DNA from: Terrimicrobiaceae bacterium
GTDB taxonomy: Bacteria; Verrucomicrobiota; Verrucomicrobiia; Chthoniobacterales; Terrimicrobiaceae
Direction: 5' to 3'
Assembly: GCA_044342325.1 (NCBI GenBank)
Contig: JBIIPZ010000001.1
Span: forward strand, 64,001 to 128,000
Length of the DNA: 64,000 nucleotides
The notes below the pieces were generated by a model. It was not told the DNA's origin and searched no databases. It worked only from the letters and a program-made list of their open reading frames with translations. The position numbers were made by a program, and so were the translations under genes. This document shows, one piece after another, positions 28,369-48,408 of the stretch (positions are counted from its first letter, which is position 1; each line of letters begins with the position of its first letter).

Positions 28369-28370
28369 AA

Positions 28371-29465: not shown

Positions 29466-29496
29466 AAGTATTAGGATTTTATTATTGAGCTAATTT

Positions 29497-30348: not shown

Positions 30349-30376
30349 ATGCCCAGAGATTTATCGCCCTTGATAA

Positions 30377-31435: not shown

Positions 31436-31450
31436 GAAACAATGGCAGGG

Positions 31451-33535
31451 TTACAACTTGAATCGATTCACGAGTTGGCCGAGGGAACCGGCAAGGTGGC
31501 TCAGTTCCCCAGCGCTCGAGCTGATGCGCGAGGCTCCTTTGGCGGATTCGCTGGCGGCTTGGGAGACGCCGTTGATATTGCGTGAGACTTCATCCGCGCC
31601 GGCAGAGGCGTTCTTCACATTTTCGGACAGGCTCTTTGTGGAGGATGTCACATTGTGCAGTGAACGAACGATTTCTGATGTGGTCGCGGATTGTTCTTCG
31701 ACAGCTGCCGCAATGCTGGAAGCGATCTGGCTGACTTGTTCGATGACCTTGGCCACATCATCAATCGCTTCCATGGAATTTGAGGTATTTTCCTGGATGA
31801 GACTGACCTGAAGTCGGATGTCCTGAGTCGCTGCTGCAGACTGGCGGGCGAGTTCCTTGACCTCGTTGGCCACGACGGCGAATCCTCGACCGGCTTCACC
31901 GGCGCTGGCGGCTTCAATGGTTGCGTTGAGCGCCAACAGGTTTGTCTGCTCGGCGATTTGGTTGATGAGTTCTACGATTTTTCCGATCTGGCGCGCCGAT
32001 TCGTCGAGCTTGATCATAAGCTCGCGTGTCTGACGGGCTTGTGAATCCGCCTTGCGGGCGATTTCTGATTCTTGGGTGCAGTTGCGAGCTACCTCTTGGA
32101 TGGATGAGGACATTTCCTCCACGGCAGCGGCTACGGTGGTGGCGGATTGGCTGATCTCGCCGGCCGATGCTGTCATGGATTTGGAATTGATTGCAAGTTC
32201 TTCTCCTGCAGCAGCGACTGTATGGGCTTGCACATTGGTTTGCTCCGCGCCTGCGGCTTGCGAATTCGCGGTCTCGGTAAGGATCGAGGCGGATTCCGTC
32301 AGTGCTTCGGATGTATGCGTGATTTCCTGCACCATCTTGCGAAGGTTCTCGATGCAAGTATCCACCGAGTTGGCAAGAACGCCCACCTCATCACCGCGCT
32401 TGAGTTTGACGCTGCCACTCAGGTCGCCATCAGCCAGTTTTTTCACGGCTTGGGCGCATGCCACGATCGGTTTGCTAATCGAGCGACCGATGATCACTGC
32501 AGCGGCAAACATGAAGATAACGGCACAGATCGATATGGTCCAAGTGATTTCCACCACACGCTTGAGCAAGTCCTGCTCATGAACGCTCACAAGAACATGC
32601 CAATTGGCATTTGGGTATCCTAAAACGCCCTTGCTTCTGGCTGCGCCATAAACCGTCCACTCTTTGTGGATGGGATCAAATTCCCTGCCGATCGAGGAGG
32701 TTTTGGAAAGAATGTCTTTGGCGGCTTCTCTTCCTTCGGCAACAATGTTTTCGGTAAGAATGACTTTGGAATCTTTGATAAAATCTTCGCTTCCTGTGGC
32801 AGATGGGTCCAGTTTTCCGAGCACAAGGCCATGCTCGTTCAAAAGTGATATCTCAGTGGATAAAATTCCACTTTCCTTCATTTGAACGTAGGGTTTGTGT
32901 AAGATGTTTTCGACGAATGTCATGTCTGCAAAATTCTTCCAGACGCCCAAGAATTCTCCATTTTTCCCCGTGATCGGCGCAGCGAACCCGATGGTTTCGA
33001 ATTCTATGCCGAGGAGTTTATTGACATCTAGGTCTCGAGCCGGCTGGCCTACAACGGTGCCAGTCAAGGTATCCGATGCCGTGAAACGGCCTTGTTTGGC
33101 ATTGACAAACCAGTCTGCACCGGAAAAGTCTTTACCCAAAAGGTAGCTGGAGTCGATCGACTTTCCTAAAGCATCCAAAGAATTGACTGCAACAACCTTG
33201 CCATTTGCGTCAACGATGAGGCTGATCGGGTAGCACCCGTAGAGTCTCACATAGGTATTGATGGCCTCTGTAAGAGAAGAAGAGTCTTTTTCCTCACCGC
33301 CTAGAAAATTTTTGGCCACTGGGTTTGAGGCAAAGGCTTGCACATCACCATAGCGTTCGAAGAGATTTCGTTCGATGATTTCGATCGAGGCATCCGCATG
33401 GGCCAGAAGTTGTTTCTTGGAAAAGTCGGCGATGCGGTTGGCGGAGTTCAGGCCAAAGATGGTCAATGCCATCACTGGAATCAGGCCACCTATGGCCATG
33501 CTGATGATAAGCCGTGTTGAGAGGTTGATTTTCAT
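31451..33535 (-). CDS. Transmembrane methyl-accepting chemotaxis protein (Cache-HAMP-MCP signal)
   Basis: Two TMs, [14 protein letters not shown] sensor motif, HAMP (GDEVGVL), [31 protein letters not shown]. Confidence 0.95.
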
Positions 33536-33541
33536 GGTATT

Positions 33542-36313
33542 TTAATTGGTGAGAGTTGCTGCTTCTTTGGTGTTTGGTAGCTGGGTCATGTGGTGCTGGG
33601 GGTGGCCTGGCTGCTGCTGCGAGTTCGCCGTGAGCATGAAATGGCCTTGAGCGAAGAGTGATGTCTCGTCTCCGCCTGCGCTGAGCATTTCCGCGATCGC
33701 GTCGAAATCCAGGACCAGTGAAAGGCGATCCGATAGGACAGCGCTGCCCCTAAGTCCTCTGGCTCTGAATGTTGCTTTGTCGATTTGGTCTTCTGAGAGA
33801 TCGGCGGAGTCGACAATGCGGGAGGCGACAATGCTTAATCCATCGAATGGTGGCCTTGGCACAATGAGGAAGAATTCCTCTGCGCGTTGGGTCTGTGGCT
33901 TGATAGGGATAAGATCCGAGAGTTGGACCAATCGCAGCGTGGAGTCGTGGTTCTTGCGGAGGCAATCCATCGAGCCGATGCGCTCGATGTCGGAGGCTTT
34001 GACGGATTCGACGCGCATGACTTTTTTGAGGTGGATGGCGAGGAATTCGCCATCGGTCTCCTGAAAAATAAGCACGCGCTCGGAAGTAGAGTCGGAAAGA
34101 GCGACTTCGCTTGATTTCGAGGCGTTGAGAGCCAATTGAGAGGCTGAAATCCTGCCTTGAGCCATGGAATTCGGGTCCAGAATCATGGCGATTTCACCCT
34201 GACCTAATATCGTGGCTCCTGTATAATAAGGCACGGAGCGAAGATGGCGGCCGAGAGGTTTGACCACGATTTCCTCGTTGCTGATAATTTCATTAACGAT
34301 CAGGCCGTAGGAAACATGGTCCAATCTCAGAACGACCACGAAGTTTTCTTGTTTGGCATTCTCCCGGGGAGGGTGGCCCAAAAGGTCGGAGAGATCCACG
34401 ACGGGAAGGAGTTGTCCTCGCAGCTCAAGCACGCGTGCACCGCCCATGGATTTGAGCGGGTATTCCTCTCCAGGGTGCACGATTTCATCCACATTGATCT
34501 GAGGCAGTGCATAGTTTGTGCCTCGGCAGCCAACGATCAGGGCGGGAACGATCGCCAGTGTGAGCGGGAGGCGAATAATGATGCGGGTGCCCTGGCCCAA
34601 GCGGCTGTCAAGTTCCACATGGCCACCGAGTTTCTCGATGTTGGTTTTCACCACATCCATGCCAACGCCACGGCCTGAGATGTCACTGACTGCCGCAGCT
34701 GTGGAAAAACCAGCGGCGAAGATTAATTGGAGGGCGTCGGAGTCCGTCATGCGGGCGGCTTGATCGGCGGTGAGGATCCCTTTTTCGATAGCTTTTGATT
34801 TGAGGCGCTCGGGATCCATGCCGCCGCCATCGTCGAGGACCTCGATCTGGACGCGCCCAGCGAGGTGCGCAGCCGAGAGACGAATGGTTCCGCAGGAGCT
34901 TTTGCCTTTGGCTGTCCGATTTGCCGGGGCTTCGATACCGTGATCGACGCTGTTCCTCACAAGGTGGGTGAGGGGGTCGGAAAGGCCTTCCAGAAGGGTG
35001 CGGTCGAGTTCCACATCGTCGCCGAAAATTTCGAGCTGGATTTCCTTGTTCAGCTTGTGGCTGAGATCGCGGACGATGCGTGTGAATTTCCCAAAAAGAC
35101 CACCGACTGGCTGCAGGCGGGCTCGCATGATCGTATCCTGAAGATTGGAAGTCACCGAGCTGATCTCTTGCACCACGGATTGCATCTGGGAATTGTCAGG
35201 GCCATTATCCGAGCGGCCGGCTATCCGCAGGAGTCGGTTGCGGCCGAGAACCATTTCGCCCGCCAGATTCATGAGCGAGTCGAGAAGGCCGACACTGATG
35301 CGAATGGTTTCCTCGGGTTTGCGTCTGGCAGCTGCAACGGGCTTGGGATCAATCTGGGTGGCGGCTGGCTCCGCAGGTTGAGGCGCGATGGCGGGGACCG
35401 TCGGCGAGGTCGGCACGATGCTTTGAGATACGACAACCTCTGGAGTCGTTTCCTCAATCTCTTGCGACTCGTCCACGATAGGAGAGGTTTTTTCAGTTGG
35501 AGCAGTTTTTACCCATTCGCCCAGTTTGGATGATTCGATCTGGTGGATGTTTTCATCGCCCAGGCCGAGTGCACCACAGAGGATAAATGGCTCCAAGGCC
35601 GTTACAAAAAAGAAGCGGCAAGAGACATCGGCCTCTGCACAGTTCGAAAGAGTGACATGATCCGGTAGTGAGGCTTCGGTGCCTATGAGCGTGCCGAGGG
35701 ATGTTAGCTCTGATACAAAGTGCTCAAGGGTCTGTGCTTGAGATTCGATCTCTTTTTCCAATCCTGCTTGCACGATGTAGAAGTTTTGGCCGTGCTTCAG
35801 CCCATCCAAAAGATCATCCGGATGAAAATCAAATCTCGCAAGTTCCCTATCAAGGACGGAATCCGATTTTTTTTCAGGAAGTTTTGGGGCCGGTGTTTCG
35901 GCGCCGCTTGCGGCAGCCGACGAGGCCCCCGAGGAAGTGCCGTCGAGAATGGCTTGGAGGCCTGCAATCTCGCCTTCACAGGCGATTTCTATGGCCCTTT
36001 CCGGGTTGCCGAGCATGAGGTTCAGTTTGTCCGAGGTCGAGATGAGCAGGCTGACCATAGGCTGGTCGGCCTTAAGAACTGCATCCCGCAGGAGCGACAT
36101 CACGCTCTCCATCACATGGGCGAGCTTGACGATGGGGTCGAAGCCAAAGAAGCCGGCGCCGCCCTTGAGGCTGTGAACAGATCGGAAAATGCTGTTCAGT
36201 AGGGCATTGTCCGTTGGATTCGACTCGAGGGCCATCAAATCCGTTTCAAGGGTCTGCAAGTGCTCGCTGGACTCTTGAACAAAAAGATCGAGCATTTCCT
36301 GATCGGCACTCAT
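33542..36313 (-). CDS. cheA: Chemotaxis histidine kinase with two C-terminal CheW-like domains
   Basis: Hpt FRSVHSLKG, HLVRNSVDHGIE, DDGGGMD, SGRGVGMDVV, P5 domain and an extra CheW-like domain. Confidence 0.95.
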   Translation of the reverse strand: MSADQEMLDLFVQESSEHLQTLETDLMALESNPTDNALLNSIFRSVHSLKGGAGFFGFDPIVKLAHVMESVMSLLRDAVLKADQPMVSLLISTSDKLNLMLGNPERAIEIACEGEIAGLQAILDGTSSGASSAAASGAETPAPKLPEKKSDSVLDRELARFDFHPDDLLDGLKHGQNFYIVQAGLEKEIESQAQTLEHFVSELTSLGTLIGTEASLPDHVTLSNCAEADVSCRFFFVTALEPFILCGALGLGDENIHQIESSKLGEWVKTAPTEKTSPIVDESQEIEETTPEVVVSQSIVPTSPTVPAIAPQPAEPAATQIDPKPVAAARRKPEETIRISVGLLDSLMNLAGEMVLGRNRLLRIAGRSDNGPDNSQMQSVVQEISSVTSNLQDTIMRARLQPVGGLFGKFTRIVRDLSHKLNKEIQLEIFGDDVELDRTLLEGLSDPLTHLVRNSVDHGIEAPANRTAKGKSSCGTIRLSAAHLAGRVQIEVLDDGGGMDPERLKSKAIEKGILTADQAARMTDSDALQLIFAAGFSTAAAVSDISGRGVGMDVVKTNIEKLGGHVELDSRLGQGTRIIIRLPLTLAIVPALIVGCRGTNYALPQINVDEIVHPGEEYPLKSMGGARVLELRGQLLPVVDLSDLLGHPPRENAKQENFVVVLRLDHVSYGLIVNEIISNEEIVVKPLGRHLRSVPYYTGATILGQGEIAMILDPNSMAQGRISASQLALNASKSSEVALSDSTSERVLIFQETDGEFLAIHLKKVMRVESVKASDIERIGSMDCLRKNHDSTLRLVQLSDLIPIKPQTQRAEEFFLIVPRPPFDGLSIVASRIVDSADLSEDQIDKATFRARGLRGSAVLSDRLSLVLDFDAIAEMLSAGGDETSLFAQGHFMLTANSQQQPGHPQHHMTQLPNTKEAATLTN

Positions 36314-36627
36314 TCGGCGTCCTCCTGGGTTATGATGGACATGCGGCGTTTAAGATTGAACACATTCAGAAATTGTTTCGCCTCCGGCGAGGCTTGGATT
36401 TTCAGGGCAAGTCCCCGGTTTTGACATTCCTGAGCCAGGGTAAGTAGAATCTTGATCGTTCCCGAGTCGAAGCTGGCGGTCTCTGAGAGGTCGAGTTCGA
36501 CTGTGCTTGCGCCATCCGCCTTTTCGAGTGCCTTCTGGAGCTGTGGGGCGGCTTTGACGGCGGTCGAGACGTTCAACTCAAGACCAGGCGTGATCTTGAA
36601 GATGCCTTTTTGGTTCTTCGTTTTCAT
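36310..36627 (-). CDS. STAS-domain (anti-anti-sigma-like) protein
   Basis: VELDLSETASFDSGTIKILL; 105 aa; overlaps cheW and cheA by 4 nt. Confidence 0.85.
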   Translation of the reverse strand: MKTKNQKGIFKITPGLELNVSTAVKAAPQLQKALEKADGASTVELDLSETASFDSGTIKILLTLAQECQNRGLALKIQASPEAKQFLNVFNLKRRMSIITQEDAE

Positions 36628-37157
36628 GCCGAGTGGTTTTTCTTAAGCTCCGACATGGACACAAGGTTGCCGATTTGCAGCACGGTGGTGAGGGTGTCTT
36701 GAGAGCTGATAACTCCGGCGATGAACCGGGTATCCAAACCGCTGAGTGCCTCTGGAGGAGGTGGCAGAACCTTTGTTTCAGGCGGTAGGATGTCTCCAAT
36801 GGCGTCGACGAGCAGGCCGGTTGGGTCGGCGTCCGCCAGCTCATGGTCTTCGGGTGGGTGGGGAAGGCGCACCAGGTCGTTTGTTGTCTTGAAAAAGATG
36901 CAGCGGCTCGAGGGGCGGTTTTCAGGGATGGGGTGGCCGAGGCGTTCCTCCAAGTCGAGAGCCGTTAAAATCTGGCCTCTCAAGTGCACGACGCCGCGCA
37001 CATAGGAGGAAGCCAGTTTGACAGGAGTCACGGATGGGCAGCGCAGGACTTCTTTAACCCAGAGAAGGTCACAAGCGTATTGCCGGCCGCAGGAAGTGAA
37101 TCCCAGCCATTGCGATTCTCTGGATAAGGGTCCTGCTTTTGCGAGGCTAAGATTCAC
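36624..37157 (-). CDS. cheW: Chemotaxis adaptor
   Basis: VKEVL, YVRGVVHLRGQILTALDL, GLLVDAIGDI. Confidence 0.9.
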   Translation of the reverse strand: MNLSLAKAGPLSRESQWLGFTSCGRQYACDLLWVKEVLRCPSVTPVKLASSYVRGVVHLRGQILTALDLEERLGHPIPENRPSSRCIFFKTTNDLVRLPHPPEDHELADADPTGLLVDAIGDILPPETKVLPPPPEALSGLDTRFIAGVISSQDTLTTVLQIGNLVSMSELKKNHSA

Positions 37158-37181
37158 TTAAGATATGGTGAGGGTTGATCG

Positions 37182-38399
37182 TTAAAACGCCTTTTTAGCG
37201 GCGTCTCGATTTGGGTAAATATCCAGCGTGGTCTGGCCCTCAAATGGATTCTTAATATCTTTGAACGCAGCCACTTTTTGGTTGCTTGCAACGAGTGTGG
37301 GCAGGGTGAAGATGTCATCATCCGATCCCACGATGCGCCACGCGATATCCAAGGCCTTTGCTTCGACAAGGATGCATGCGATGGCTCGGAGCAATGGGAT
37401 TTCAAATTTTTTGACCCCAGTCAGATCCATGATGAGTTTGTTGTGTCCGGAGTTTACGAGGCCGGAAAGTCTGGCGCGGGAATAGCGAACAAGGTCGAGC
37501 GACCCGATCTCACTCAGATCCTCCGGCATGGAGACAACGAGAGCATCCTCGTCCATACTGTAGAAGAGCGGCGTGTTATCCAAATCCATGGCGCGGACTA
37601 AGCGGTCTGGAAGCTCTTTCAGGTCGAGAGGTTTCGTGATGCTGCCAACAAATCCTGTATCTTTCGCATTGTTTTGCTCGAAAGTTGCTGTTTTGACACA
37701 GAGACCCATAAGCGGCACCTTGCTCAATGCGGGATTCGAGCGCACGGTTGCGTAGAAGGTCAGGGCTGCTTTGTTAGGGTAAGCGAGGCTTATCAGAATG
37801 ATGTCGGGTGTATTTTCAACTGGCACCGAGGAGGCGACTTCTGCAGCCGCTTCGGTCGGACTTGCACTGCCCACGACTTTCCAACCGCGATTTGAAACCG
37901 CTTTTTGGATGGACTCGATGATGGCCGGGTGCTCGTCAACAACGAGGATTTTTAGAGCATCCGTCACGGATTTCTGTTTCTTGCCGGGTCCTGCTGCGAC
38001 CGCAGCTGGTGCTGCAGCTCCCTTGTGTTTGAGGTCCACCAGCTTTGATACGCGGTCAACGACGTTTGCTTCTGTGAAGGGTTTGACGATGTAGTCGCGG
38101 ACACCCATTTTGGCGATCTTGAGCACATTCTCTTTGCCTGCCTCGGCAGTGAGCATGATAACTGGAATGTCTTTGAGTGCCGGGTCTGCTTTGAGTTTCC
38201 CGAGGCATTCCACGCCGTCCATGACAGGCATGGTCACATCGAGAAGAATGACATCTGGTTTTTCATTGGCGGCTACTTCCAGGCCTTCGGCTCCATTGTT
38301 GGCGAACAGCATTTGGACATCATAAGGTGCAAAGCCTTTGTTGATAAGGGTGTGGATCATTCGACTGTCGTCGACGCTAAGAATTTTAGGTGAGCTCAT
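37182..38399 (-). CDS. Response regulator, REC-pseudoREC-STAS-like
   Basis: REC1 LLDVTMPVMDG; REC2 has ILISLAYP (no phospho-Asp); C-terminal KLIMDLTGV STAS-like region. Confidence 0.8.
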   Translation of the reverse strand: MSSPKILSVDDSRMIHTLINKGFAPYDVQMLFANNGAEGLEVAANEKPDVILLDVTMPVMDGVECLGKLKADPALKDIPVIMLTAEAGKENVLKIAKMGVRDYIVKPFTEANVVDRVSKLVDLKHKGAAAPAAVAAGPGKKQKSVTDALKILVVDEHPAIIESIQKAVSNRGWKVVGSASPTEAAAEVASSVPVENTPDIILISLAYPNKAALTFYATVRSNPALSKVPLMGLCVKTATFEQNNAKDTGFVGSITKPLDLKELPDRLVRAMDLDNTPLFYSMDEDALVVSMPEDLSEIGSLDLVRYSRARLSGLVNSGHNKLIMDLTGVKKFEIPLLRAIACILVEAKALDIAWRIVGSDDDIFTLPTLVASNQKVAAFKDIKNPFEGQTTLDIYPNRDAAKKAF

Positions 38400-38414
38400 A
38401 GATAGAAGAAAAAG

Positions 38415-38906
38415 TTAGTGTTCCAATGCGGCAAAAGCTTGAACAACCAAGCTGCCGGGGCAGTCCTCGATCGTGTAGTCGTTCCGAACGCTAACGGAGG
38501 CTGTCTTTGCCGAGACCCTGATATCATCGCCCTTTACGACGCTGGGAATGCTGAGGCTGCAATTGAAACCTGAATCGCACAGCTGGGACTTGAGGTTTCC
38601 CGTGATCATGTTTGTGAGTTCTGCAACGACATCTGAAACATCTTGGTCGCTGGCGCTTCCTCCGAGGATTTTTTCTGCCACGCACTGCGCCAGATCATAA
38701 GAAAAAGCGGTATAAACCATGCCGTTGACTTTTCCGCTCAGGCCGATGGAACCAGTCACGCCGACCAAACTTGCAGGCTGTGGTGCGTTTTCATTTCCCG
38801 TTCCAGGTTTGGCCGTGACACCTACCATGGTCTGCATGACCTCTGGAACATATCGGTTAAGAGTTGCTAAAAATAATTCGCCACCGGGCACGTTATAGTT
38901 TGACAT
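38415..38906 (-). CDS. cheX: CheX phosphatase
   Basis: VTGSIGLSG, DVVAELTNMITG (ExxN), SIPSVVKG. Confidence 0.9.
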   Translation of the reverse strand: MSNYNVPGGELFLATLNRYVPEVMQTMVGVTAKPGTGNENAPQPASLVGVTGSIGLSGKVNGMVYTAFSYDLAQCVAEKILGGSASDQDVSDVVAELTNMITGNLKSQLCDSGFNCSLSIPSVVKGDDIRVSAKTASVSVRNDYTIEDCPGSLVVQAFAALEH

Positions 38907-39046: not shown

Positions 39047-40696
39047 TCAAAATTTCCCGCATTCGAGTTCCAGTGTGATGGTCGGGCGGTCGCAGATATC
39101 GGCCGGGCCGAAGTATTGAATTGGGCCGGGGAATGCGTATTGGGTTTCCTTCGCCCAGGAGGCGCGGTGTTTTTCGAATTCCTTGAAGGCGGGGCCGTCA
39201 AGTTCGACGAGGGCTTTTTTGATGACGGGCACCATTTTGCCGTGGCGGCGTTCCATGTTCATCATCTGGGCCATAGGGATGCCGCCCGCTTGCCAGTCGG
39301 CGGCGGGTTTGGTTAGGCCGCGAACGGAGCAGATGTAGCCTGTGAGGCCCTCGCGGAGGAGGAGGGCGGCGGTGAAGCCGAGCGTGTAGGTGTAGTCGGC
39401 GTCGAAGTTCGACGGCACGGCGCAGCGGCCTTCATAGCCAAAATAGTGCGGCTGGGGCGAGAAGCTGGCTTTATAGGTGCCGGCGGCTTTCATTTCTTTC
39501 AAGCGCGCTTCGACGAGGTCGATCAGGAGGCGCTGGGTGTCAATGCGGGCGACTTGCACATTACCGTGCGGATCGCGGTCGAGGATAAGTTGATTCGCGA
39601 TGTCATCCGGCAGGCTGCGATAGAGCGATGCGGCGGCTGCGGTGAGCTTCGCGGCGACGAATTCGCGTTTTTGCGGGAGCGTTTCCAGGGCGTTGAAGGC
39701 GTCGCCGTGGTGTGCGAGGGTGTCGTTGAGTTCGCCGATGAGGGCGCCCATTTCCGGAACGAATTCGATGAGGCCTTCGGGAATGAGAACGGTTCCGAAT
39801 TTTTCGCCGTTGTCCGCGCGGTGGGCGACGGTGTCTGAGATCTGGTCGACGATTTGCTTGAGCGTGAGCCCGCGCTCAGCGACTTCCTCGGAGATGAGTG
39901 TGATATTCGGATGCGTCTGCAGCGCGCATTCCAGGGCGATGTGTGAGGCCGAGCGGCCCATGAGCTTGATGAAGTGCCAGTATTTGCGGGCCGAGATGGC
40001 GTCGCGCTGGATGTTTCCGATGAGGTCGGAGTAAACCTTGCTGGCCGTGTCGAAACCGAAGCTTGTCTCGATGTGCTCGCCGCGCAGGTCGCCATCAATC
40101 GTCTTCGGAACGCCGACGACGCAAAGCGGGGCGTTGTTGGCTTTTGCAAACTCGGCGAGCTTCGAGGCGTTGGAATTTGAGTCGTCACCGCCGATGACCA
40201 CCAGTGCGGTGAGATCGCGGGATTTTGCGGTTTCGAGGGCTTTGAGAAAATCCTCGTGCGATTCGAGTTTCGTGCGGCCCGAGCCGATGATGTCAAACCC
40301 ACCGGTGTTGCGGTAGCTCTCGAGGAGCTTGGCGTCGATTTCGATGCCCTTGTTCGTGAGAAGGCCGTCCGGGCCATTCAGGAAGCCGATGAGCGAGCTT
40401 TCGGGATGGATGCTTTTAATGGCGTCGAAGAGACCGGCGATGACATTGTGTCCACCGGGCGCAGGGCCGCCGGAGAGGATCACGCCAACGCGGATCGGCG
40501 AAGCTGCGGCTGGTGCGGAGCCTTTTTCAAAGGTCACAGCGGGTAGGTCGAAGGTGTTTGGAAAAAGGGCGCGGATTTCGCTGTTGCTGGATGTCGGTAA
40601 CGGAGTCTGCTTCGCGGTGGATGCCGCGCTGAGCGAGGCTGGGAGCTTGGGACGGTATGCTGAACGGGCTTGGGCGAGTGCTGTTTGCTGGATCAT
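39047..40696 (-). CDS. pfp: Pyrophosphate-dependent phosphofructokinase (long clade)
   Basis: SGGPAPGGHNV, GGDDSN, PKTIDGDL, KLMGRSASH, GYEGR. Confidence 0.95.
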   Translation of the reverse strand: MIQQTALAQARSAYRPKLPASLSAASTAKQTPLPTSSNSEIRALFPNTFDLPAVTFEKGSAPAAASPIRVGVILSGGPAPGGHNVIAGLFDAIKSIHPESSLIGFLNGPDGLLTNKGIEIDAKLLESYRNTGGFDIIGSGRTKLESHEDFLKALETAKSRDLTALVVIGGDDSNSNASKLAEFAKANNAPLCVVGVPKTIDGDLRGEHIETSFGFDTASKVYSDLIGNIQRDAISARKYWHFIKLMGRSASHIALECALQTHPNITLISEEVAERGLTLKQIVDQISDTVAHRADNGEKFGTVLIPEGLIEFVPEMGALIGELNDTLAHHGDAFNALETLPQKREFVAAKLTAAAASLYRSLPDDIANQLILDRDPHGNVQVARIDTQRLLIDLVEARLKEMKAAGTYKASFSPQPHYFGYEGRCAVPSNFDADYTYTLGFTAALLLREGLTGYICSVRGLTKPAADWQAGGIPMAQMMNMERRHGKMVPVIKKALVELDGPAFKEFEKHRASWAKETQYAFPGPIQYFGPADICDRPTITLELECGKF

Positions 40697-40756
40697 GGAA
40701 TGCGATAAAGGAAGGCGCTTTATTAGCCTTCTCAAAAACGAACGCAAGCGCGGCTT

Positions 40757-42112
40757 TTACTCGGAAGCGGGCGGTGTATCCTGGGGCAGCGTAGTGCTGG
40801 TTGGATCTACAGACGGGGAGGGATTCGGCGTCGGGCTAGGACTTGGAGTCGGCGAAGGTGTTGGCGTCGGCCACGGGGGCACAAGATTTGGCCATTCGTG
40901 CAATGGCACGGTGAGGCCGCCGAGTTCCTCAGCGAGTTGAGTGCATTTTTCCCGCCACTTCGCGAGATCAGGCGGGCCGGGGGATTCATCGGCCGAACCA
41001 GGGAAGACGAGGTAGGTCACATTGAGGTCGCTGGCGGCGCGGATGATATTCGACGAGCGCTGGCTGAGTTCGCGGCAGAGCAGGAGTGAGGCCTCGCCGA
41101 CTTTGTGGGAGGGGCCGGAATCGCCTAGGATGGCGGGATAGGCCCGGCCCTCGTGGATTACGATGGCGTAGTCCCCGATTTTCGGCACGAAGGGGCCGGT
41201 GTGGTCCCTCATGATGAATCCCGGTAGGACGATGAAGGGGTCCACCGAGGAGACCAGAAAGCTCCATTTCTTCAGGTCGTGGATGCGGCGGGTGGCGAGG
41301 TCGATGCCTTCGTTGATCTGGGTCACGCGTGCTGGCTTAAGTTCAGGCTTGAGTTTTTCGGCTTTGAAATCGGCGAGTCGCTTTTCCTCGATTGCCAGCA
41401 TGAGATTCGCCCGCTCGGTCTGTTTCGGCCAGCGATAGCTCGTCTGGGGAAGAAAGAAAATGGATGACGAATCGACTTGGACATTGCGGTCGCCATCCGA
41501 GCCGTCCGTGTTCACATCCATGTCAGCTATGACGAGCAGCGCGCGGCGCGATGTGGCGGTGTTCTCGAGCTCAAGCATCGTCTCGCAGTCGTAAAAATTA
41601 TGCCGAGTGAGCACGGCGTCGAGGTTGGCTAGCTTGCGGTTTAGGTCGTTTGTTTTGAGTTCGTAGATTTTTTCAAAAAACGGAGACACCGAAGCGCTGG
41701 TAAGCAGGACGGGAAGGTCCTTGAAAACGCTGGGCAGCGAGGGGTCGCTTGCCGCGATGTCTTCGAGCGCGAGGGCCGGGCGTGGCAGGCGGGCGCGCAA
41801 GGTCAGCTCGACTTTATAGGCATCCGGGTCACGGCGGTCCTGCGATGCCAGTTCGTTCGATGCATTCGCAACAGCGGCGGATTCCAGCGAGATGCCGCTG
41901 AAGAGCGTGGCCGTGGGAAGCGGCTTGCGAACCAGAGCGGGTATCGGCTTGGGCGTCGGGACCGGTGTCGGCGTGGGGGAGGGCATTGGCGTTGGGGGAG
42001 GAGGGGGTGGCGGCGGAGCTTTCGGGCAGGCGGTGAGGCTGAACGCGGCGAAGCACACTCCGAGAGCTGCAAATCCCCTGCGCCACCTGCCTGCCGTCGC
42101 GCCCGTTTTCAT
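40757..42112 (-). CDS. GH75 (chitosanase-like) lipoprotein with Pro-rich arms
   Basis: Lipobox LTAC, MDVNTDGSDG, GDSGPSHKVGEASL (Asp/Glu spaced as in fungal GH75), YLVFPGS. Confidence 0.75.
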   Translation of the reverse strand: MKTGATAGRWRRGFAALGVCFAAFSLTACPKAPPPPPPPPTPMPSPTPTPVPTPKPIPALVRKPLPTATLFSGISLESAAVANASNELASQDRRDPDAYKVELTLRARLPRPALALEDIAASDPSLPSVFKDLPVLLTSASVSPFFEKIYELKTNDLNRKLANLDAVLTRHNFYDCETMLELENTATSRRALLVIADMDVNTDGSDGDRNVQVDSSSIFFLPQTSYRWPKQTERANLMLAIEEKRLADFKAEKLKPELKPARVTQINEGIDLATRRIHDLKKWSFLVSSVDPFIVLPGFIMRDHTGPFVPKIGDYAIVIHEGRAYPAILGDSGPSHKVGEASLLLCRELSQRSSNIIRAASDLNVTYLVFPGSADESPGPPDLAKWREKCTQLAEELGGLTVPLHEWPNLVPPWPTPTPSPTPSPSPTPNPSPSVDPTSTTLPQDTPPASE

Positions 42113-42115: not shown

Positions 42116-43969
42116 TCAGGTATGGGCGATGAAGGCCGAGTAAACATCCGGTGGGATGTCGAGCATCTTGTAGTCGCTGGATGAAACGAAGAGCAGGGTT
42201 TGCTTGCCCTTGCCGAGAAGTTGTCCGAGCGAGTCATAGATTTCATGTTCCAGTGTAGCGAACTTGCGGTTGTAGCTGGCAACGCGGATTTTCACCTGCA
42301 CGGTTTCAAACTCCCGGGTTTCGCGGACAAACTTGTGCTCGAACGAGCGGGTCAGGATGTAGAACGGTGTGTTCTTGAGATTGAACTTCGGCATGACGCG
42401 GTTGAAAAATAGCTCGCGCGCCTTACCGACCCACATGGCATACATGCCGAAATAGACATTACCGACCGAGTTGGTGTCCGCATAGGTCGCGACGAGGGTG
42501 TAAACAAACCACTTGTCTTCAAAATGCCCTGCCAAGCTGTGCTGGGAGGCTCCCGGGTCGAGAACAGTGATCGGGCTCGCCACGCTCACAGCGCTCTCTG
42601 GGCGTGACGCAAAGGCTGAGGGGGCGGTGGTGTCTAATTCCGCTGTATCGCTCACGAATTCATCCGAGGAAGTGGGCTTCAGCAGCAGCCAGATCACATA
42701 GCCGAGCGGCAGGAGCGAGCCGACGATTTGCAGGCTCGGAGAACGCAGGAAGTAGCCAAAGGAAAAAATGACCACTGCAATGCTGCCGATGCAGAACATT
42801 TTCACCTGCGGAATCGCATTCGCCGGGCTGACAATGTAGCAGCGGGCGATCGCCAGGATCGAGTAGCCAACGAAGAATGTGGCGTAAAAGATCATGAAAA
42901 ATTCCAGCTCAAACTTGAGCATGACTCCCGCCACGGCGACGATGCCTGCAAGCAGGTAGGCTGGGATCGGAGATGTGAGGAGCTTGGGCGGAACGAGTGA
43001 GAAGATCGGATGGTTGCTCGTGCTGGCGTTGGATTGCAAAAACCACTTCAAAGCGATGTAGCCGCTGTCGAGCGTGGTCAGCACACACACGCAGATGAAC
43101 ACAGCATAGGCGGCGAATGTCCAAGATGACGCATTGGAGAAGACCATGGTCAGCACTTCCTGGCCATAGTTGTGCCCGGTGATTCCCACGCGAATGAACT
43201 CTCCCGCGCCCCAGTTGAGCGCCCAGAGTGCTGTGATGCCGTGCCAGAGGATGAGGCCGAAAAAGAGGAGCGAGCCGATGATATATCCGGCAGCGATGGA
43301 GACGCGCTCGCGGTGCATTTGAATCGCCCGCTGCCATTGCTGGAGGTCAAGCCACGGGCCGACGAGGAAACCGATGATGATCGGCACGGCGTAGCCCCAG
43401 TAGTTCCAGTCGTTCGTAGGCAGCTTGGGAATCGTTAGTGGGCCGGTTCCCTTTCCGAGTGTGTGCACAGTAAGAATCACCAACGCCGGAGCAAGCAGCA
43501 GGAAAAGCGCTCCATGGCTGAATTTGATGCGTTTGATGTCAAATTCCTCGCCAAACAAAATCGCCGCCGCCAGCACCACAAGCATTGTGAGTGGTAAGTA
43601 GAGGAGTTCCGGACGGAAGCCCAAAGGCGCCCAAGCGTAGCGGATGAATGCAAAGATCGTCAGTGTGATGGCGAGCAGTTGATAGAGGAAAAAAACCAGC
43701 CGGAACGGCCTCGACCAAGAGGCAAAAAATTTCGCCAGCGACTCGGATCCCGACTCCCTCCGCGCCAAGTGGTGCGTGACCAAGCCGAAGATCAGAAGCC
43801 CCAGAAAATTCGGAATCGCAAAGGTCAGCAATCCGAAGAGTCCGAATTGCGTGGTGAATTGAACAGAGAAGAACAGGCCGAGCCCCCACATCCAGGAAAG
43901 CGCAATAGAGATTCCCCACAGCACAGCGCCGAGAGAGCGTGGGATTGGAAGAGCCGAAGATTTAGCCAT
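42116..43969 (-). CDS. Polytopic SSS-like permease fused to a C-terminal hot-dog thioesterase
   Basis: About 12-13 hydrophobic segments with SIALSWMWG, DLQQWQRA, LTTLDSG; linker; then YADTNSVGNVYFGMYAMWVGKARELFF. Confidence 0.75.
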   Translation of the reverse strand: MAKSSALPIPRSLGAVLWGISIALSWMWGLGLFFSVQFTTQFGLFGLLTFAIPNFLGLLIFGLVTHHLARRESGSESLAKFFASWSRPFRLVFFLYQLLAITLTIFAFIRYAWAPLGFRPELLYLPLTMLVVLAAAILFGEEFDIKRIKFSHGALFLLLAPALVILTVHTLGKGTGPLTIPKLPTNDWNYWGYAVPIIIGFLVGPWLDLQQWQRAIQMHRERVSIAAGYIIGSLLFFGLILWHGITALWALNWGAGEFIRVGITGHNYGQEVLTMVFSNASSWTFAAYAVFICVCVLTTLDSGYIALKWFLQSNASTSNHPIFSLVPPKLLTSPIPAYLLAGIVAVAGVMLKFELEFFMIFYATFFVGYSILAIARCYIVSPANAIPQVKMFCIGSIAVVIFSFGYFLRSPSLQIVGSLLPLGYVIWLLLKPTSSDEFVSDTAELDTTAPSAFASRPESAVSVASPITVLDPGASQHSLAGHFEDKWFVYTLVATYADTNSVGNVYFGMYAMWVGKARELFFNRVMPKFNLKNTPFYILTRSFEHKFVRETREFETVQVKIRVASYNRKFATLEHEIYDSLGQLLGKGKQTLLFVSSSDYKMLDIPPDVYSAFIAHT

Positions 43970-44023
43970 TGATGCAAAATCCATACAACGACCGGATCGA
44001 ACTCGCAACTTCTTCCAAAACTT

Positions 44024-44080
44024 CCGCGCGGCAGCGCGTAGTTCCCATGGGAGGGGCAGCGTCTCGTCTGACCCAAATTT
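44024..44080. repeat. REP unit
   Basis: ccgcgcggcagcgcg..tgggaggggcagcgtctcgtctgacccaaattt. Confidence 0.8.
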
Positions 44081-44145
44081 CCAGCAAGGACGGCGCCTCT
44101 CAACAAATTGATGTGCCTACCCTGGCACATTCAGCAGTTCAAGCG

Positions 44146-44553
44146 TTAGGCCAGTTGTTGACTCAGCGTGACCCTCCCCCGTGCGATGGCGCGGGATGCC
44201 GAAGTGATTTCAAATTCGAACTGCGCGAGTGGCCCAAGCTCTCTGACGAGCGTCACGCTGGCCTTCAAAGTCTCATTGGGCAGGGCCGCGCTCTGGATTC
44301 GCAGGGCGTCCACCGAAGCAACGAACAAAGCGGCGTCGGGTTTGGCGCTGTCTTTCATCCACAGCGCTCCAGCGGTCTGTGCGGCGAATTCCATAAGCAG
44401 CGCGGCAGGCACGATGGGGTTTCCTGGGAAGTGGTCTTTAAAAAACCACAACTCCGGATTCAGATGCCATATCCCGATGCCGTTGCCATCAACGCATTCG
44501 AAGGTATCTAAAAAACGGAATCCCGGGCCGTGGGGAGTGAGTGGTTTGTTCAT
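44146..44553 (-). CDS. FabA/FabZ-like 3-hydroxyacyl-ACP dehydratase
   Basis: PHGPGFRFLD, FFKDHFPGNPIVPAALLMEFAAQ. Confidence 0.88.
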   Translation of the reverse strand: MNKPLTPHGPGFRFLDTFECVDGNGIGIWHLNPELWFFKDHFPGNPIVPAALLMEFAAQTAGALWMKDSAKPDAALFVASVDALRIQSAALPNETLKASVTLVRELGPLAQFEFEITSASRAIARGRVTLSQQLA

Positions 44554-45521
44554 TTTTCGAGACGGGAGTAGTGGTGCCATTGTTCGGGTGCACGGGTGAA
44601 GAGAGGCACAAGCCCCTCCTTGGCCAATCGCGTGGTGAAGTTCTCCAGAGTGGCTTCGCGCCCCTCGGGCAACCATACCGGGCGCAATGGCGGCGCGGCT
44701 TCGATGGCAAATTGGCCATTCGGTTCGCGCCAGATGCCGGCGGCGACGATCGGCGCGCCGGAGAGGAGCGAAAGCAGGACCGGAGCGGTGGAGAAGGGAA
44801 TGCGGCCATGCGGTAGATCGACCTCGACGATGTTGGCGTCGAAAGGGCGGTCGCTAAGCAGGGCGATCATCGCTCCGTTTCGCAGCTTGCGCGTTATTTC
44901 CACAGCAGAGAAGGCATCGTTGCCGACCACCACCGTTTCAACCCCCCAGCGTTTGCGGAAGTCCGCCCGCCAGCGGGTCAGCTCGGTCGTAGGCTCGGGC
45001 AGCGTGAGCGTGGTCATCGGATATCCCAACTGGGACATCACAAGCCCGCCGAGTTCGAAAAATCCAAAGTGTCCAGTCACGAAAAGGCAGCCCTTTCCGT
45101 CGCTGCGTGCGTCCTCGATATGTTCAATGCCTTGTTTTGATCCCAGCATGTCGAGCACTACGCCGGTTTTGCTGACGCCCAGTTCCGCATATTCGCGGAA
45201 GTTCAACGCCTGGTGAGTGCAGACTCGTGCCGCATTTTTCCAAGTCGCTTTGCGGGGATCGAGCAGTGCGATGTTCGCGCGGATTTCGCGAAGCACCTTG
45301 GGGTGCGCAAGCGCATAGCCGGCGCCAATGAGGCGAGCGATCCAGATGCTCAGCGCCTTTCCGACAAGCCGCCGCGCTGAAATCGCCAATTCAAAGGCAT
45401 GCGGACGGTAGAGCGCCTTGTAAAACTTCGCCTCGCGGTAATCCTTGCCACGCCTCGGGCGCAAGGCCGCAACCAAGAGCGCCAGCAGACCCGTAATGAT
45501 CAAAATATGTCGGAGCCGCAT
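44550..45521 (-). CDS. LpxL/HtrB-like acyltransferase
   Basis: GKGCLFVTGHFGFFELGG, IALLSDRP, APEQWHHY. Confidence 0.85.
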   Translation of the reverse strand: MRLRHILIITGLLALLVAALRPRRGKDYREAKFYKALYRPHAFELAISARRLVGKALSIWIARLIGAGYALAHPKVLREIRANIALLDPRKATWKNAARVCTHQALNFREYAELGVSKTGVVLDMLGSKQGIEHIEDARSDGKGCLFVTGHFGFFELGGLVMSQLGYPMTTLTLPEPTTELTRWRADFRKRWGVETVVVGNDAFSAVEITRKLRNGAMIALLSDRPFDANIVEVDLPHGRIPFSTAPVLLSLLSGAPIVAAGIWREPNGQFAIEAAPPLRPVWLPEGREATLENFTTRLAKEGLVPLFTRAPEQWHHYSRLEK

Positions 45522-45562
45522 AGGTGGGGTTGGCGTCTGCCGCAGTGCGAGTTTGGGTCGCT

Positions 45563-45829
45563 TTACGCGCTGGCAAGTCGCCCGTTGATCCAGTCCCGAA
45601 GCACGCCGAGGCTCTGCAGGGCATCCCTCGCCGTCGTGGCGTCGCCGATCGAGATGCCGTATTTTTTTTCTACGGCGATGATGATTTGCAAGGCGTCCAG
45701 CGAGTCGAGACCGAGGCCGTCTGCGCCAAATAACGGCGTGTGCTCGGAGATGGTGGCGACATCGATTTTAAGCATCACATTTTCAGCCAGCATGGAGCGA
45801 AGAATGTCAACGGAGGTTTCTTTGTCCAT
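45563..45829 (-). CDS. Acyl carrier protein
   Basis: PLFGADGLGLDSLDALQIIIAVEKKYGI (Ppant Ser). Confidence 0.92.
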   Translation of the reverse strand: MDKETSVDILRSMLAENVMLKIDVATISEHTPLFGADGLGLDSLDALQIIIAVEKKYGISIGDATTARDALQSLGVLRDWINGRLASA

Positions 45830-45867
45830 GGGGTCAGGCAGCGGTGGAGTAGCAGAGCGTGTGAGTC

Positions 45868-46566
45868 TCAAGCTGACCCTGCATCCAGCCTGTCTGTGAA
45901 TATATAACCATCTACTTTCAGCGTATTCAGAAGCTCGGAAAGTGTGCAAGCCCGCTCTCCCTCGCGCATGCTGCGAAGGTGGCTTTCGTGAAGCAGGATG
46001 ATGCCTCCGGGCGTTGCGCTCCGGCGGATGCGCCGCACCACGCGGGCGGGGTCGTGGGCGATGCCGTCATGACCTGTGGCGGACCAGCCCATGATCTTGA
46101 GACCGCACGCCTCGGCCGCGAGATGCACAAAGGGGTTGGCCATGCCAACTGGGGCTCGAAAATGAACAGGCATTCGACCGATTGCTTTTTCAATAGCCGC
46201 CGAGCAACGCGTGATTTCCTCCGCCGCGCGGCGAGGCCCGGCGGACCAGAAGGTCGCCGAGGGATGTGAGTAGGTATGGTTCTGCACGGAGTGTCCTTCG
46301 TCCACCATGCGTCGACAAAGTGCCGGATGGGCCTCCGCCTTTTTCCCAATCACAAAAAATACCGCCCTCACTCGTGCTTTTGCCAAAGTATCCAAGATTT
46401 GCGGGGTCTGCTGGGGATCAGGGCCGTCATCAATCGTAAGCAGGAGTTCCCTCTCTCGGGTAGGGAAGGATTTTTCGACCGCTCCGAACCAGCCGCAGTT
46501 TCGAATCACCCCCGGTAGCACGAGCATCCAACCCGCGCAGGCTGTGAGATATCGCGACTTGTTCAT
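45868..46566 (-). CDS. Polysaccharide deacetylase (CE4/NodB domain)
   Basis: LTIDDGP, NHTYSH, FRAPVG, IILLHE; ATGA overlap with the upstream acyltransferase. Confidence 0.9.
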   Translation of the reverse strand: MNKSRYLTACAGWMLVLPGVIRNCGWFGAVEKSFPTRERELLLTIDDGPDPQQTPQILDTLAKARVRAVFFVIGKKAEAHPALCRRMVDEGHSVQNHTYSHPSATFWSAGPRRAAEEITRCSAAIEKAIGRMPVHFRAPVGMANPFVHLAAEACGLKIMGWSATGHDGIAHDPARVVRRIRRSATPGGIILLHESHLRSMREGERACTLSELLNTLKVDGYIFTDRLDAGSA

Positions 46567-47369
46567 TCCACGGGATCGGAACATCGCCGGATCGCCTCTC
46601 CCTCACGGATCAGGCGTTGGCGAAAATATTCCTCCAGCGTCTGGCTGAAATCACGCGCATTGGCATGTGGGTCGGGATGAAAAACCTGGCCGGTCGAAAG
46701 GCGGAAGTGGATTGGCATTTCGAGCGGGCTTTTGAATGAGATCGCTTTCCCTAAAAAACGGCTCGTGCACTCGATAAAGATGGTTCGCACAGCGGCACCG
46801 CCTTTGATGGCGGCGAGCGCGAATCCATCGAGGAACGGCCCAATCGCACCCTCGCGTGTTCGGGTGCCTTCGGGAAAAACAATCATGTTGCCGCCTTGGG
46901 CCACAAGTCGCCGTGTCTCCTTGACCATGCGCAGCGCAGGAAGGCTGGGTATGTATGCGGCCTGCTTGGCCGGGATGGAAAAAAGAGGATGTCGCCAAGG
47001 ATTTGCTCCGACCACACAAGCCGCGTGGGGAAATTTCTGGAAAAGTAGGAGCGCGTCAAAAATCGAGGGATGGTTCGCGCAAAGAAGAGAGCCACGCCAG
47101 TTGGCGGAGTCTTCAAAGCCCACATATTCGCAGCGGGTGCAACCCATGCGCGCCAGGCGATCGAGGTATCTCGCGCAGTGGCGGCTTATGGTCTCTCTCG
47201 CCCGGAGGTGGGATGTTTCGTCATTGCCGGATGGGAATCTGAAAAGCACGGAAGCTGCTAACCAACTCGCTCCAGCTAGATAGAGAGCGTAGGCGGCGTG
47301 GAGCCGCGCAGAATCTCGCAGAGGCCTGCTCTCGAACTGAGGCGCCGGCGCAGTCGCCGAATTCTCCAT
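46563..47369 (-). CDS. PlsC-type acyltransferase
   Basis: ANHPSIFD (NHxxxxD), VFPEGTRT. Confidence 0.88.
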   Translation of the reverse strand: MENSATAPAPQFESRPLRDSARLHAAYALYLAGASWLAASVLFRFPSGNDETSHLRARETISRHCARYLDRLARMGCTRCEYVGFEDSANWRGSLLCANHPSIFDALLLFQKFPHAACVVGANPWRHPLFSIPAKQAAYIPSLPALRMVKETRRLVAQGGNMIVFPEGTRTREGAIGPFLDGFALAAIKGGAAVRTIFIECTSRFLGKAISFKSPLEMPIHFRLSTGQVFHPDPHANARDFSQTLEEYFRQRLIREGEAIRRCSDPVE

Positions 47370-47604
47370 GGAAGCGAGCCTATTGAGTGCCATCCATCGT
47401 ATGTTTGACCGAGATGCGGGTCTTTCACCAGAACAACCTCACTCCTGCTTTGGACGCTCGGCTTGTTGTGGAGGCTTGCTTTGGGACAGGCTTGGATGCT
47501 TCTTTGCTGTTTCGTCGGAGATCAAGACCAAGCCGTGCGGCGGAGTGGATTGCGTTGCCTCAGGCATGGTCGCCGAGGTATTAAATTCTGGACCAATCGA
47601 ACAT

Positions 47605-48270
47605 ATGGCAGATTCCTTTTCCGCATTTCAGATAGCCCGCGCCTATGGTCGCTCCAGATGGCTTCGAGGCTATGTTGCTGGAAAAGTCGGCACGGATCCT
47701 GTTTTCAAGACGGCGTGGAAATTTATCAGTATGCGTCGCCAGCCCGTATGGGACATCGGATGTGGATTGGGTCTCCTTGGTATTTCCATGCGCGGCGCAG
47801 GTCTCACCGAGCGCTACCGGGGCTTCGACACCAGCGCCTGGAAGGTCAATCTGGGCAAGGAGGCCATGCGGCATTTTGGTTTTGAGGAAGTGGGCTTCGA
47901 AGTGCGCGACGCGCTGTCGGTGCAGATTCCCGAAGGGGCGACGGTCTGCATGTTCGATGTGCTTCATTATCTCTCGCCACCGGATCAGAAGCTCATGCTC
48001 GAGCGCTTGGCCAAAGCGGCTGAAGCAGGGTCTCTCATCCTCCTACGCACGACATTCAAAGACGCCGGTTGGCGTTATCTGGTAACCCTTCTTGAGGAGT
48101 GGTGGACCCGCGTTAGCGGCTGGATCAGCGGGGGAGATGTCAATTTTCCTCACCGTCGGGAGTTGGTTTCCTTTTTCAAGAATCGCGGCCTCGGAATCGG
48201 CGTAACCCCGCTCTGGGGTAAGACCCCCTTCGGCGGCGAGTTGGTCGTCATCGAAAAAATCGAGGCCTGA
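47605..48270 (+). CDS. Class I SAM-dependent methyltransferase
   Basis: GKVGTDPVF, WDIGCGLGLL, DVLHYL, PLWGKTPF. Confidence 0.85.
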   Translation: MADSFSAFQIARAYGRSRWLRGYVAGKVGTDPVFKTAWKFISMRRQPVWDIGCGLGLLGISMRGAGLTERYRGFDTSAWKVNLGKEAMRHFGFEEVGFEVRDALSVQIPEGATVCMFDVLHYLSPPDQKLMLERLAKAAEAGSLILLRTTFKDAGWRYLVTLLEEWWTRVSGWISGGDVNFPHRRELVSFFKNRGLGIGVTPLWGKTPFGGELVVIEKIEA

Positions 48271-48341
48271 TACCAACGGCTACTTGCGTTTTGACTACGG
48301 TGCTGAGGCGCGGGCGTGTCGCTTTCCGACCTCCTGCGCCA

Positions 48342-48374
48342 GGAAATGGGTCATCCCAGAGAATGACCCATTCC
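48342..48374. repeat. Degenerate REP-like hairpin or terminator between convergent genes
   Basis: aatgggtcat-cccagaga-atgacccatt; shares the aaatggg(t/c)cat start with the REP copies. Confidence 0.55.
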
Positions 48375-48408
48375 GGTGAAGGATTTCGATGCTGCTTGCG
48401 TTTTAGGA

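Follow-up and report, generated by a model that had tools for sequence, protein, structure and literature searches.

The DNA analysed here, called the window, is a stretch of 64,000 nucleotides from a Terrimicrobiaceae bacterium (assembly GCA_044342325.1, contig JBIIPZ010000001.1, positions 64,001 to 128,000). We examined a gene located at 42116..43969 on the minus strand, which encodes 617 amino acids (aa) and ends with a stop codon at 42116-42118. The product is a single polypeptide, in which a carrier of the LeuT fold with 12 transmembrane (TM) helices is joined through a flexible linker to a C-terminal hot-dog thioesterase (TE) of the enediyne/polyene type. The carrier domain (aa 1-433) is encoded at 42671..43969, the linker (aa 434-477) at 42539..42670 and the TE domain (aa 478-617) at 42119..42538, all on the minus strand. 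The carrier is a divergent offshoot of the sodium:solute symporter (SSS) family, and the fusion represents a new SSS subfamily with a new domain partner, both halves belonging to known superfamilies.

An uninterrupted 617-aa frame had been named in the original prediction, which was made from the letters of the window and left the strand unstated. The frame was borne out on the minus strand, while the plus strand carries stop codons throughout and was ruled out by them. The minus-strand open reading frame (ORF) as listed covers 42116..44008 (630 aa) with a TTG start, and an ATG 13 codons into it places the start at 43969. Close relatives most often have the resulting length of 617 aa, and in the family alignment they begin with MAKSS like the window protein. 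The ATG also fits because DNA similarity to the close relatives ends at about 44019-44025.

The full-length AlphaFold2 model reached a predicted local distance difference test (pLDDT) score of 85.7, and a model of the TM domain only reached a pLDDT of 92.3 and a predicted TM-score (pTM) of 0.92. Twelve TM helices were present in the models, so the lower of the 12-13 originally proposed was retained and the thirteenth was dropped; two helices are broken, helix 1 at aa 26-28 and helix 6 near the middle of its course at aa 208. The proposed Ser/Ala/Pro linker and hot-dog domain of about 140 aa were both recovered, the former as an Ala/Pro/Ser/Gly-rich stretch of low pLDDT (<50) and the latter at about aa 482-614, with a Pfam 4HBT_2 (PF13279) match over aa 497-613 (E 6.6e-11, 43.2 bits against a cut-off of 25.5).

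The membrane half and the thioesterase tail

Assignment of the membrane half to the SSS family needed a bridge through distant relatives, because the curated models and the profile search of the PDB gave no carrier. Pfam and NCBIfam returned zero matches to aa 1-470 even at E ≤ 10, the gathering score of the curated PF00474 model was not reached by the carrier half, and zero carriers were matched in a PDB sequence search with the family profile. Residues 1-470 were compared exhaustively with 1.84 billion representatives by phmmer, and 193 proteins were matched at E ≤ 1e-3. Domains were scanned in 56 of the 150 listed matches, proteins shorter than 387 aa being left out as likely fragments. Nine of the 56 were true PF00474 (SSF) proteins, found among the most distant matches (whole-library E 1e-9 to 1e-5), and a further 16, of 387-497 aa, had no confident family match and look like TM-only relatives. 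Profiles were built from 37 fused members (A1) and from eight of the true SSF proteins (A2), and hhalign aligned the two over the whole TM domain (380 columns) with 99.8% probability and E 2.3e-27. The A2 profile itself matches DUR3 (1e-47), CHT1, vSGLT (4e-24), SGLT1/2, SiaT, SMCT1 and NIS.

Hot-dog matches dominated the fold search made with the full-length model, and it was repeated with the TM-only model. All 49 rows then listed by Foldseek against the PDB were LeuT-fold/APC carriers, the best E-value being that of SGLT2. The query TM-score (TMq) was 0.58-0.65 for SSS members (DUR3 0.65, NIS and SGLT2 0.62, SiaT 0.59) and 0.38-0.55 for non-SSS carriers including NKCC1, LAT1, AdiC, CodB, Nramp and LeuT. 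Profile and fold together bear out the likeness to sodium:solute symporters that had been noticed by eye, and the TM half is a divergent relative of these proteins with the LeuT fold.

The fusion carrier and the SSS family (PF00474; DUR3, vSGLT/SGLT, PutP, SiaT, CHT1 and NIS) are homologous over the whole TM domain and share the broken TM1 and TM6, whereas the fusion carrier has 12 rather than 13-14 helices, bears an enzyme tail and lies below recognition by the Pfam SSF and NCBIfam models. An extra N-terminal helix, with the N-terminus outside and 13-14 TM helices in total, is typical of the whole SSS family. The A1-A2 alignment begins at template column 43, and the fusion family is without this helix of the SSF group. 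Since the helix is absent, the N-terminus is expected inside. The positive-inside count favors the same orientation (18 vs 7), and 37/37 members are biased likewise, which places both termini, and with them the TE domain, in the cytoplasm.

The motifs of the carrier core are conserved down to 29% identity, namely SW.WGLG in TM1, PN in TM2, GPW.D.QQWQR at the TM6 break and TLDS in TM8, and SW.W, PN, D.QQWQR and TLDS are also common to the true SSF subgroup. The motifs quoted in the original prediction were found to be present and conserved (as SWxWGLG, DLQQWQR and TLDS, and as DTNSVGNVYF..Y..W.GK.RELF in the tail). Invariant or nearly invariant residues of the core are G43, N54, Q97, P205, D208, W212, R214, T299, D301 and S302. 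Through the A2 profile, T298 and T299 align to the SS of AAIVSSLAS in vSGLT, which we take to be the Na2-site serines S364/S365, and T299 is invariant in A1. Because the TM1/TM6 breaks, the core motifs and the Thr pair at the Na2 position are kept, the domain looks, from its sequence, like a working ion-coupled carrier rather than a mere anchor.

The tail had been said to recall SgcE10, DynE7 and CalE7, and its nearest solved proteins by sequence, family profile and fold are indeed EspE7 (5vpj, 9ccr), CalE7, DynE7 and SgcE10. With the family profile, the top six PDB matches were all enediyne TEs (E 2e-14 to 4e-12), and the seventh was a YbgC-type protein (8.7e-6). Foldseek superposed the tail on EspE7, CalE7, SgcE10 and DynE7 with a target TM-score (TMt) of 0.81-0.84, a root-mean-square deviation of 2.1-2.6 and an identity of 23-29%. 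In the printed alignment, N500, Y510 and R518 stand opposite N19, Y29 and R37 of CalE7, a set presumably catalytic in these enzymes. Y510 and R518 are invariant in the 37 members and N500 is at least 90% conserved; the R518 column, which contains the Arg singled out in the original prediction, also holds the residue changed in the EspE7 R35A entry 9ccr. These features suggest that the tail is a cytoplasmic acyl/polyene-type TE with an intact catalytic set.

A catalytic Asp matters in 4HBT and YbgC enzymes as well as in other hot-dog TEs. We tentatively placed its YbgC-type position at N500, which is Asn in at least 90% of the 37 members; one report (PMC8918352) supports the importance of this Asp in hot-dog TEs. 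The enediyne TEs and the tail have in common the hot-dog fold, the Asn/Tyr/Arg set and the lack of Asp at the 4HBT/YbgC catalytic position. They differ in that CalE7, DynE7, SgcE10 and EspE7 stand alone as proteins of about 140-160 aa, encoded next to a type I polyketide synthase (PKS) of the iterative kind in actinomycetes, whereas the tail belongs to a membrane carrier of Verrucomicrobiota and Alphaproteobacteria and no enediyne PKS (PKSE) cassette was found in the window.

The relatives are named in their sources as 'acyl-CoA thioesterase' (FadM/YbgC), 'thioesterase family protein' or 'hypothetical protein'. The first of these names would fit a simple anchoring role, in which a general YbgC/FadM-like acyl-CoA thioesterase, serving the housekeeping of phospholipids or the envelope, is simply kept at the membrane by the TM domain, with neither transport nor coupling. 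Weak NCBIfam matches to the YbgC/FadM models and the frequent envelope genes nearby (YkuD, PBP1, LptF/G) point the same way. However, the scores of the tail are far under the cut-offs (22.2 bits against 68.7 for TIGR00051 and 17.1 against 141.35 for TIGR02799), and the Asn in place of the YbgC-type Asp is shared with the enediyne TEs. Moreover, 12 helices with core motifs invariant across two phyla, TM1/TM6 breaks and a Thr at the Na2 position are more than an anchor needs, and we consider pure anchoring improbable.

Between the two halves, the linker of the 37 members varies from 36 to 103 aa (median 55) and is rich in Ala, Pro, Ser and Gly, with no conserved column in the family alignment. 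Since it is variable in length and without conserved columns, the tail appears to be tethered rather than rigidly coupled. Other carriers joined to cytoplasmic modules are known. In LplT-Aas, a lysophospholipid transporter of the major facilitator superfamily (MFS) goes with an acyltransferase/acyl-acyl carrier protein (ACP) synthetase, so that a carrier is joined to an acyl-thioester module, and in CbrA/CrbS an SSS domain is joined to a sensor kinase. The fusion differs from LplT-Aas in carrier superfamily and from CbrA/CrbS in partner module, and the Aas-type family names gave only weak matches for a PlsC-type protein encoded in the window. Fusions of the CbrA/CrbS type give some room to a sensor or gate, in which solute binding or transport would switch the TE, or binding of an acyl thioester to the tail would gate the carrier, the latter being one of two ideas put forward in the original prediction. 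Two residues specific to the family, H545 and H575, are invariant in the fusion family and absent from the aligned EspE7 and CalE7 sequences, and they could form an interface. Against this, a linker of such length without a conserved column is a poor transmitter of conformational signals, and the full catalytic set is kept although regulation by binding alone would not need it; a sensor or gate is therefore judged unlikely.

Distribution and gene neighbourhood of the fusion

Among 8000 candidates scored, 1113 relatives of the fusion protein were found at E ≤ 1e-3. All of the 120 listed carry PF13279 and are 66-99% identical to the fusion protein, and the taxa named among the listed close relatives are Spartobacteria, Terrimicrobiaceae and Chthoniobacterales. 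At least 582 genomic stretches in species-representative genomes encode a relative. A third profile (A3), built from distant members, added 230 relatives at E ≤ 1e-10; those with a name belong to cultured Methylobacterium, Methylorubrum, Aurantimonas, Aureimonas, Phyllobacterium and Methylocapsa. In Methylorubrum extorquens AM1, the megaplasmid bears one copy. The fusion is found in two phyla, with members in Verrucomicrobiota and in cultured Alphaproteobacteria.

The fusion is conserved and under selection as a single gene, as the original prediction had assumed: the 4HBT_2 tail was kept in 30/30 scanned representatives of at least 568 aa and in one N-truncated protein (31 of the 56 scanned). 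It could be objected that an error of sequencing or assembly fused two genes or that the frame is not a real gene, and TM-only relatives of 390-500 aa do exist. Long contigs also hold five proteins that consist of the TE only (144-205 aa; P0436, P0450, P0421, P0474 and P0489) and might be real stand-alone forms. But nearly all short TE-only matches come from contigs only about 1-2 kb long or bear the label partial, and the same unbroken architecture occurs in assemblies independent of one another, complete genomes of cultured bacteria among them. A split gene or misassembly is ruled out by this, and the chance of an artefact is practically negligible.

We found no characterised SSS-thioesterase fusion in the open literature searched, outside which most subscription journals lie, and this agrees with the original prediction. 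In a survey of the hot-dog superfamily (PMC516016), the section on domain fusions describes no such fusion.

Neighbourhoods were compared in 80 of the at least 582 related stretches, all from Chthoniobacterales-type genomes and numbered with the prefix L, plus the AM1 plasmid copy (L081, fusion gene at 9965-11800). The recurrent partner, which the original prediction had missed, is the gene of a GH75 chitosanase-like lipoprotein (40757..42112, minus strand, 451 aa), starting 3 nt after the stop codon of the fusion gene. A GH75-like gene was adjacent downstream on the same strand in 62 of the 80 loci, or 62 of the 70 with enough downstream sequence, the other ten ending too early to judge. It was missing in eight loci with at least 1.4 kb downstream (one of them with only 1.5 kb). 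The fusion gene and the GH75-like gene form a stable two-gene core in Chthoniobacterales, set among shifting neighbours.

The partner has a lipobox (LTAC, Cys29), Pro/Thr-rich linkers and an extra N-terminal region of about 130 aa. It matched Pfam Glyco_hydro_75 with 45.8 bits (cut-off 27), and phmmer aligned its aa 283-401 to the chitosanase V-Csn (7tvm) with E 4.2e-8. The catalytic pair of V-Csn is D148/E157 according to a report on it (PMC9485262). D331 and E340 of the partner occupy these positions, nine residues apart in both proteins, and are invariant in 24 partners. D197-M-D199, at the start of the Pfam match, is also invariant; it is a candidate counterpart of V-Csn D34/D36 and lies outside the V-Csn alignment (aa 283-401). 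The family model and the D/E pair are common to the partner and the GH75 chitosanases (V-Csn, fungal Csn). The partner is set apart from these by being a lipoprotein of bacteria, by the additional N-terminal region and the Pro/Thr-rich linkers, and by an invariant WPTPTP. A complex prediction with carrier aa 1-440 and partner aa 60-425 scored 0.00 in both runs, which bears neither for nor against binding.

The W-P-T-P-T-P motif (aa 414-419, window 40856-40873) stands directly after the GH75-like catalytic domain in 24/24 partners, inside an otherwise variable Pro/Thr/Ser-rich tail, and a second conserved Pro/Thr stretch follows the lipobox. The motif could be a glycosylation or docking site. 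A gene of a pyrophosphate (PPi)-dependent phosphofructokinase (39047-40747) follows the GH75-like gene at a distance of 9 nt and on the same strand, both in the window and in L002-L007, and is possibly co-transcribed.

Such a partner opens the possibility of an uptake module. The GH75-like lipoprotein would cut a glucosamine-containing glycan in the periplasm, for example chitosan or a de-N-acetylated wall polymer or exopolysaccharide, and the carrier would import the amino sugar with Na+ or H+, while the tail would be accessory, adjusting the acyl-CoA pool or trapping the incoming amine by transferring an acyl group to it. The close and recurrent same-strand neighbourhood speaks for it, together with the invariant catalytic D/E pair of the partner. 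SSS carriers serve uptake, DUR3, SGLT and CHT1 are matched by the true SSF group closest to the fusion family, and genes of sugar metabolism sometimes follow, such as the phosphofructokinase and, in L060, GlmS. On the other side, the fusion persists without a GH75 gene in the eight loci with room downstream and in the Methylorubrum copy, and kinase, deaminase and glucosaminidase genes are not recurrent in the flanks. We also know of no thioesterase role in amino-sugar uptake, and hot-dog TEs are not, to our knowledge, N-acyltransferases. The uptake module is a serious but doubtful alternative.

Upstream of the fusion gene, the window contains a 4.4-kb segment (44024..48408, 4385 bases extra compared with L003 and L005) between gltB and the fusion gene. 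It encodes a FabZ/ApeI-like dehydratase (44146-44676 as listed, with an internal ATG at 44553 as the likelier start), an LpxL-like acyltransferase (44550-45521), an ACP (45563-45829), a NodB-type deacetylase (45868-46584), a PlsC-type acyltransferase (46563-47393) and, divergently on the plus strand, a methyltransferase (47368-48270). In L003 and L005, only about 140 bp separate gltB from the fusion gene. In L001, L002, L004 and L006, too, similarity at the DNA level ends at about 44019, and other genes lie upstream. The segment is also missing beside fusion genes whose proteins are 96-99% identical, and only short, chance-like repeats were found when its ends were inspected for repeats and mobile-element signatures. 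The original prediction had implied a link of the fusion to the ACP; this link was not upheld, since the ACP and its five neighbours are missing beside the fusion in 80/80 loci, and the segment was ruled out as a conserved partner.

The gene set of the segment resembles the lipid-attachment half of aryl-polyene (APE)-type clusters and could make an N-acylated amino-sugar lipid. According to a report on APE clusters (PMC8253772), these combine a 4HBT-type TE with an ACP, an ApeI-like dehydratase, lysophospholipid-type acyltransferases, a methyltransferase, pairs of ketosynthases (KS) and an RND/MMPL exporter. The same kinds of genes occur around the fusion, but scattered over different genomes, and the likeness is one of gene content. 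No complete cluster was seen at the fusion loci, which are without ketoreductase, LolA/LolB-like and acyl-ACP synthetase genes, and ApeK, the TE of the APE clusters, is not fused to a carrier as the fusion tail is.

A FabF-like KS scoring below every curated cut-off flanks the module in 19/80 loci. It lies divergently upstream in the closest relatives L001, L002, L004, L006 (about 8684-9906) and L007 (about 2270-3480), and after the GH75 gene in another clade (L025-L052, L069), there with a degenerate KS-like partner; this partner was counted in 14/80 loci. A DUF374 gene was present within the fetched flank in 10/80 loci, LptF/G in seven, GT2 in five and a YkuD L,D-transpeptidase in 12, and in L049 only (7440-9890) the gene directly upstream of the fusion encodes an HpnN-like MMPL/RND lipid exporter. 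Two KS queries run by tblastn gave no KS in the 64-kb window, and tblastn with 14 flank proteins over the whole window showed that the recurrent flank genes of the relatives are absent from it. No PKS domain was detected among the window ORFs scanned at 27.9-64 kb, and in the flanks of the related loci only type II-like KS were seen. The neighbours thus often concern dedicated acyl-chain synthesis or the cell envelope. A link of the fusion to dedicated acyl-chain synthesis is suggested because of the KS, KS-like, DUF374 and MMPL genes in these loci and the ACP/dehydratase/acyltransferase segment of the window.

The YkuD gene is situated upstream of the fusion in L010, L012, L014, L015, L026, L058, L062, L072, L073 and L075 and farther away in L049 and L060, and in L024 a class A penicillin-binding protein (PBP) gene is found upstream of the fusion gene. 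These neighbours hint at a cell-wall theme.

Possible function of the fusion protein

The reading that we favour, with a probability of about one in three, is that the TE cleaves a dedicated acyl thioester at the membrane and the carrier then moves the released acid. At the inner face of the membrane, one and the same small molecule would be handled first by the TE and then by the carrier. The original prediction had likewise proposed transport coupled to the release of an acyl chain. Since the active sites of hot-dog enzymes lie at subunit interfaces, the tail is probably dimeric. It would hydrolyse an acyl or polyenoyl thioester with the Asn/Tyr/Arg set of CalE7-type enzymes, the thioester being carried on an ACP (or CoA) and loaded by a dedicated, non-housekeeping KS system. 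The carrier would move the released polar-headed acid across the membrane, and release and export would be coupled by proximity. In Chthoniobacterales, the product may serve the cell envelope, and the presumably co-transcribed GH75-like lipoprotein may act on a glucosamine-containing glycan. For the substrate, the direction of transport and the link to the lipoprotein, we infer only. The pairing of a release enzyme with an exporter has a precedent in ApeK/ApeM of the APE clusters, where ApeK is a hot-dog TE encoded beside acyltransferases and an RND exporter (PMC8253772).

Several points weigh against this reading. The same report gives no hydrolysis by ApeK in vitro and proposes a proofreading role for it (PMC8253772). 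The lipid-gene neighbours vary among the loci, and the six segment genes adjoin the fusion gene in none of the 80, the upstream sequence reaching 4.5 kb or more in 55 of them. Among 15 small ORFs that follow the KS pair in L027, L029, L050 and L069, none matched an ACP, and GH75 and KS genes are both missing from the surroundings of the AM1 copy. The SSS family is known for ion-driven uptake, and we know of no characterised SSS member that is an exporter. The commonest partner is a periplasmic glycosidase, which alone suggests uptake of a sugar product over export of an acid, and with the long disordered linker any coupling would be by proximity and not by mechanics.

A stronger form of acid release followed by export can be imagined, in which hydrolysis of an acyl-ACP or acyl-CoA thioester by the tethered hot-dog dimer feeds the carrier directly or biases it energetically, making release from a dedicated KS system and export across the inner membrane one concerted step. 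We regard this 'vectorial de-esterification' as quite unlikely. If true, it would be the mirror image of the vectorial acylation in fatty-acid uptake, and it would define a new outward-working SSS subfamily and a kind of coupling that is new for carriers of the LeuT fold.

Each half comes from a well-studied superfamily, and a carrier of about 430 residues has been overlooked under a thioesterase annotation. The fusion is present in hundreds of Verrucomicrobiota species and in many cultured strains of Methylobacterium, Methylorubrum, Phyllobacterium, Aureimonas and Aurantimonas, and since one copy is in M. extorquens AM1, a genetically tractable model, the question is directly testable. If the halves cooperate, the fusion would show how a secondary carrier is wired to thioester chemistry and would bear on how bacteria release specialised lipids or polyketide acids and place them in the envelope. 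In the opposite case, an SSS subfamily has still gone unrecognised, and the fusion would also be a warning that annotation by the sole recognisable domain hides the main body of a protein.

Minor observations in the AM1 plasmid and the window

On the AM1 megaplasmid, genes of a LuxR-type autoinducer-binding regulator and a LuxI-type autoinducer synthase (17245-18793 of L081) lie 5.4-6.4 kb downstream of the fusion, beyond the gene of an OmpR-type regulator. Acyl-ACP is used by LuxI enzymes. The arrangement was seen once, and it shows no link to the fusion.

The window also contains a complete chemotaxis cluster at 27919-38906 on the minus strand, comprising CheX, CheW, a STAS protein, CheA, a methyl-accepting chemotaxis protein (MCP), CheB and CheR. 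Its response regulator has two receiver stretches, its CheA two CheW-like stretches, and its MCP a dCache and a HAMP domain. The ORF at 28371-29465 has an odd order of parts, with the MCP signalling piece N-terminal to the Cache piece.

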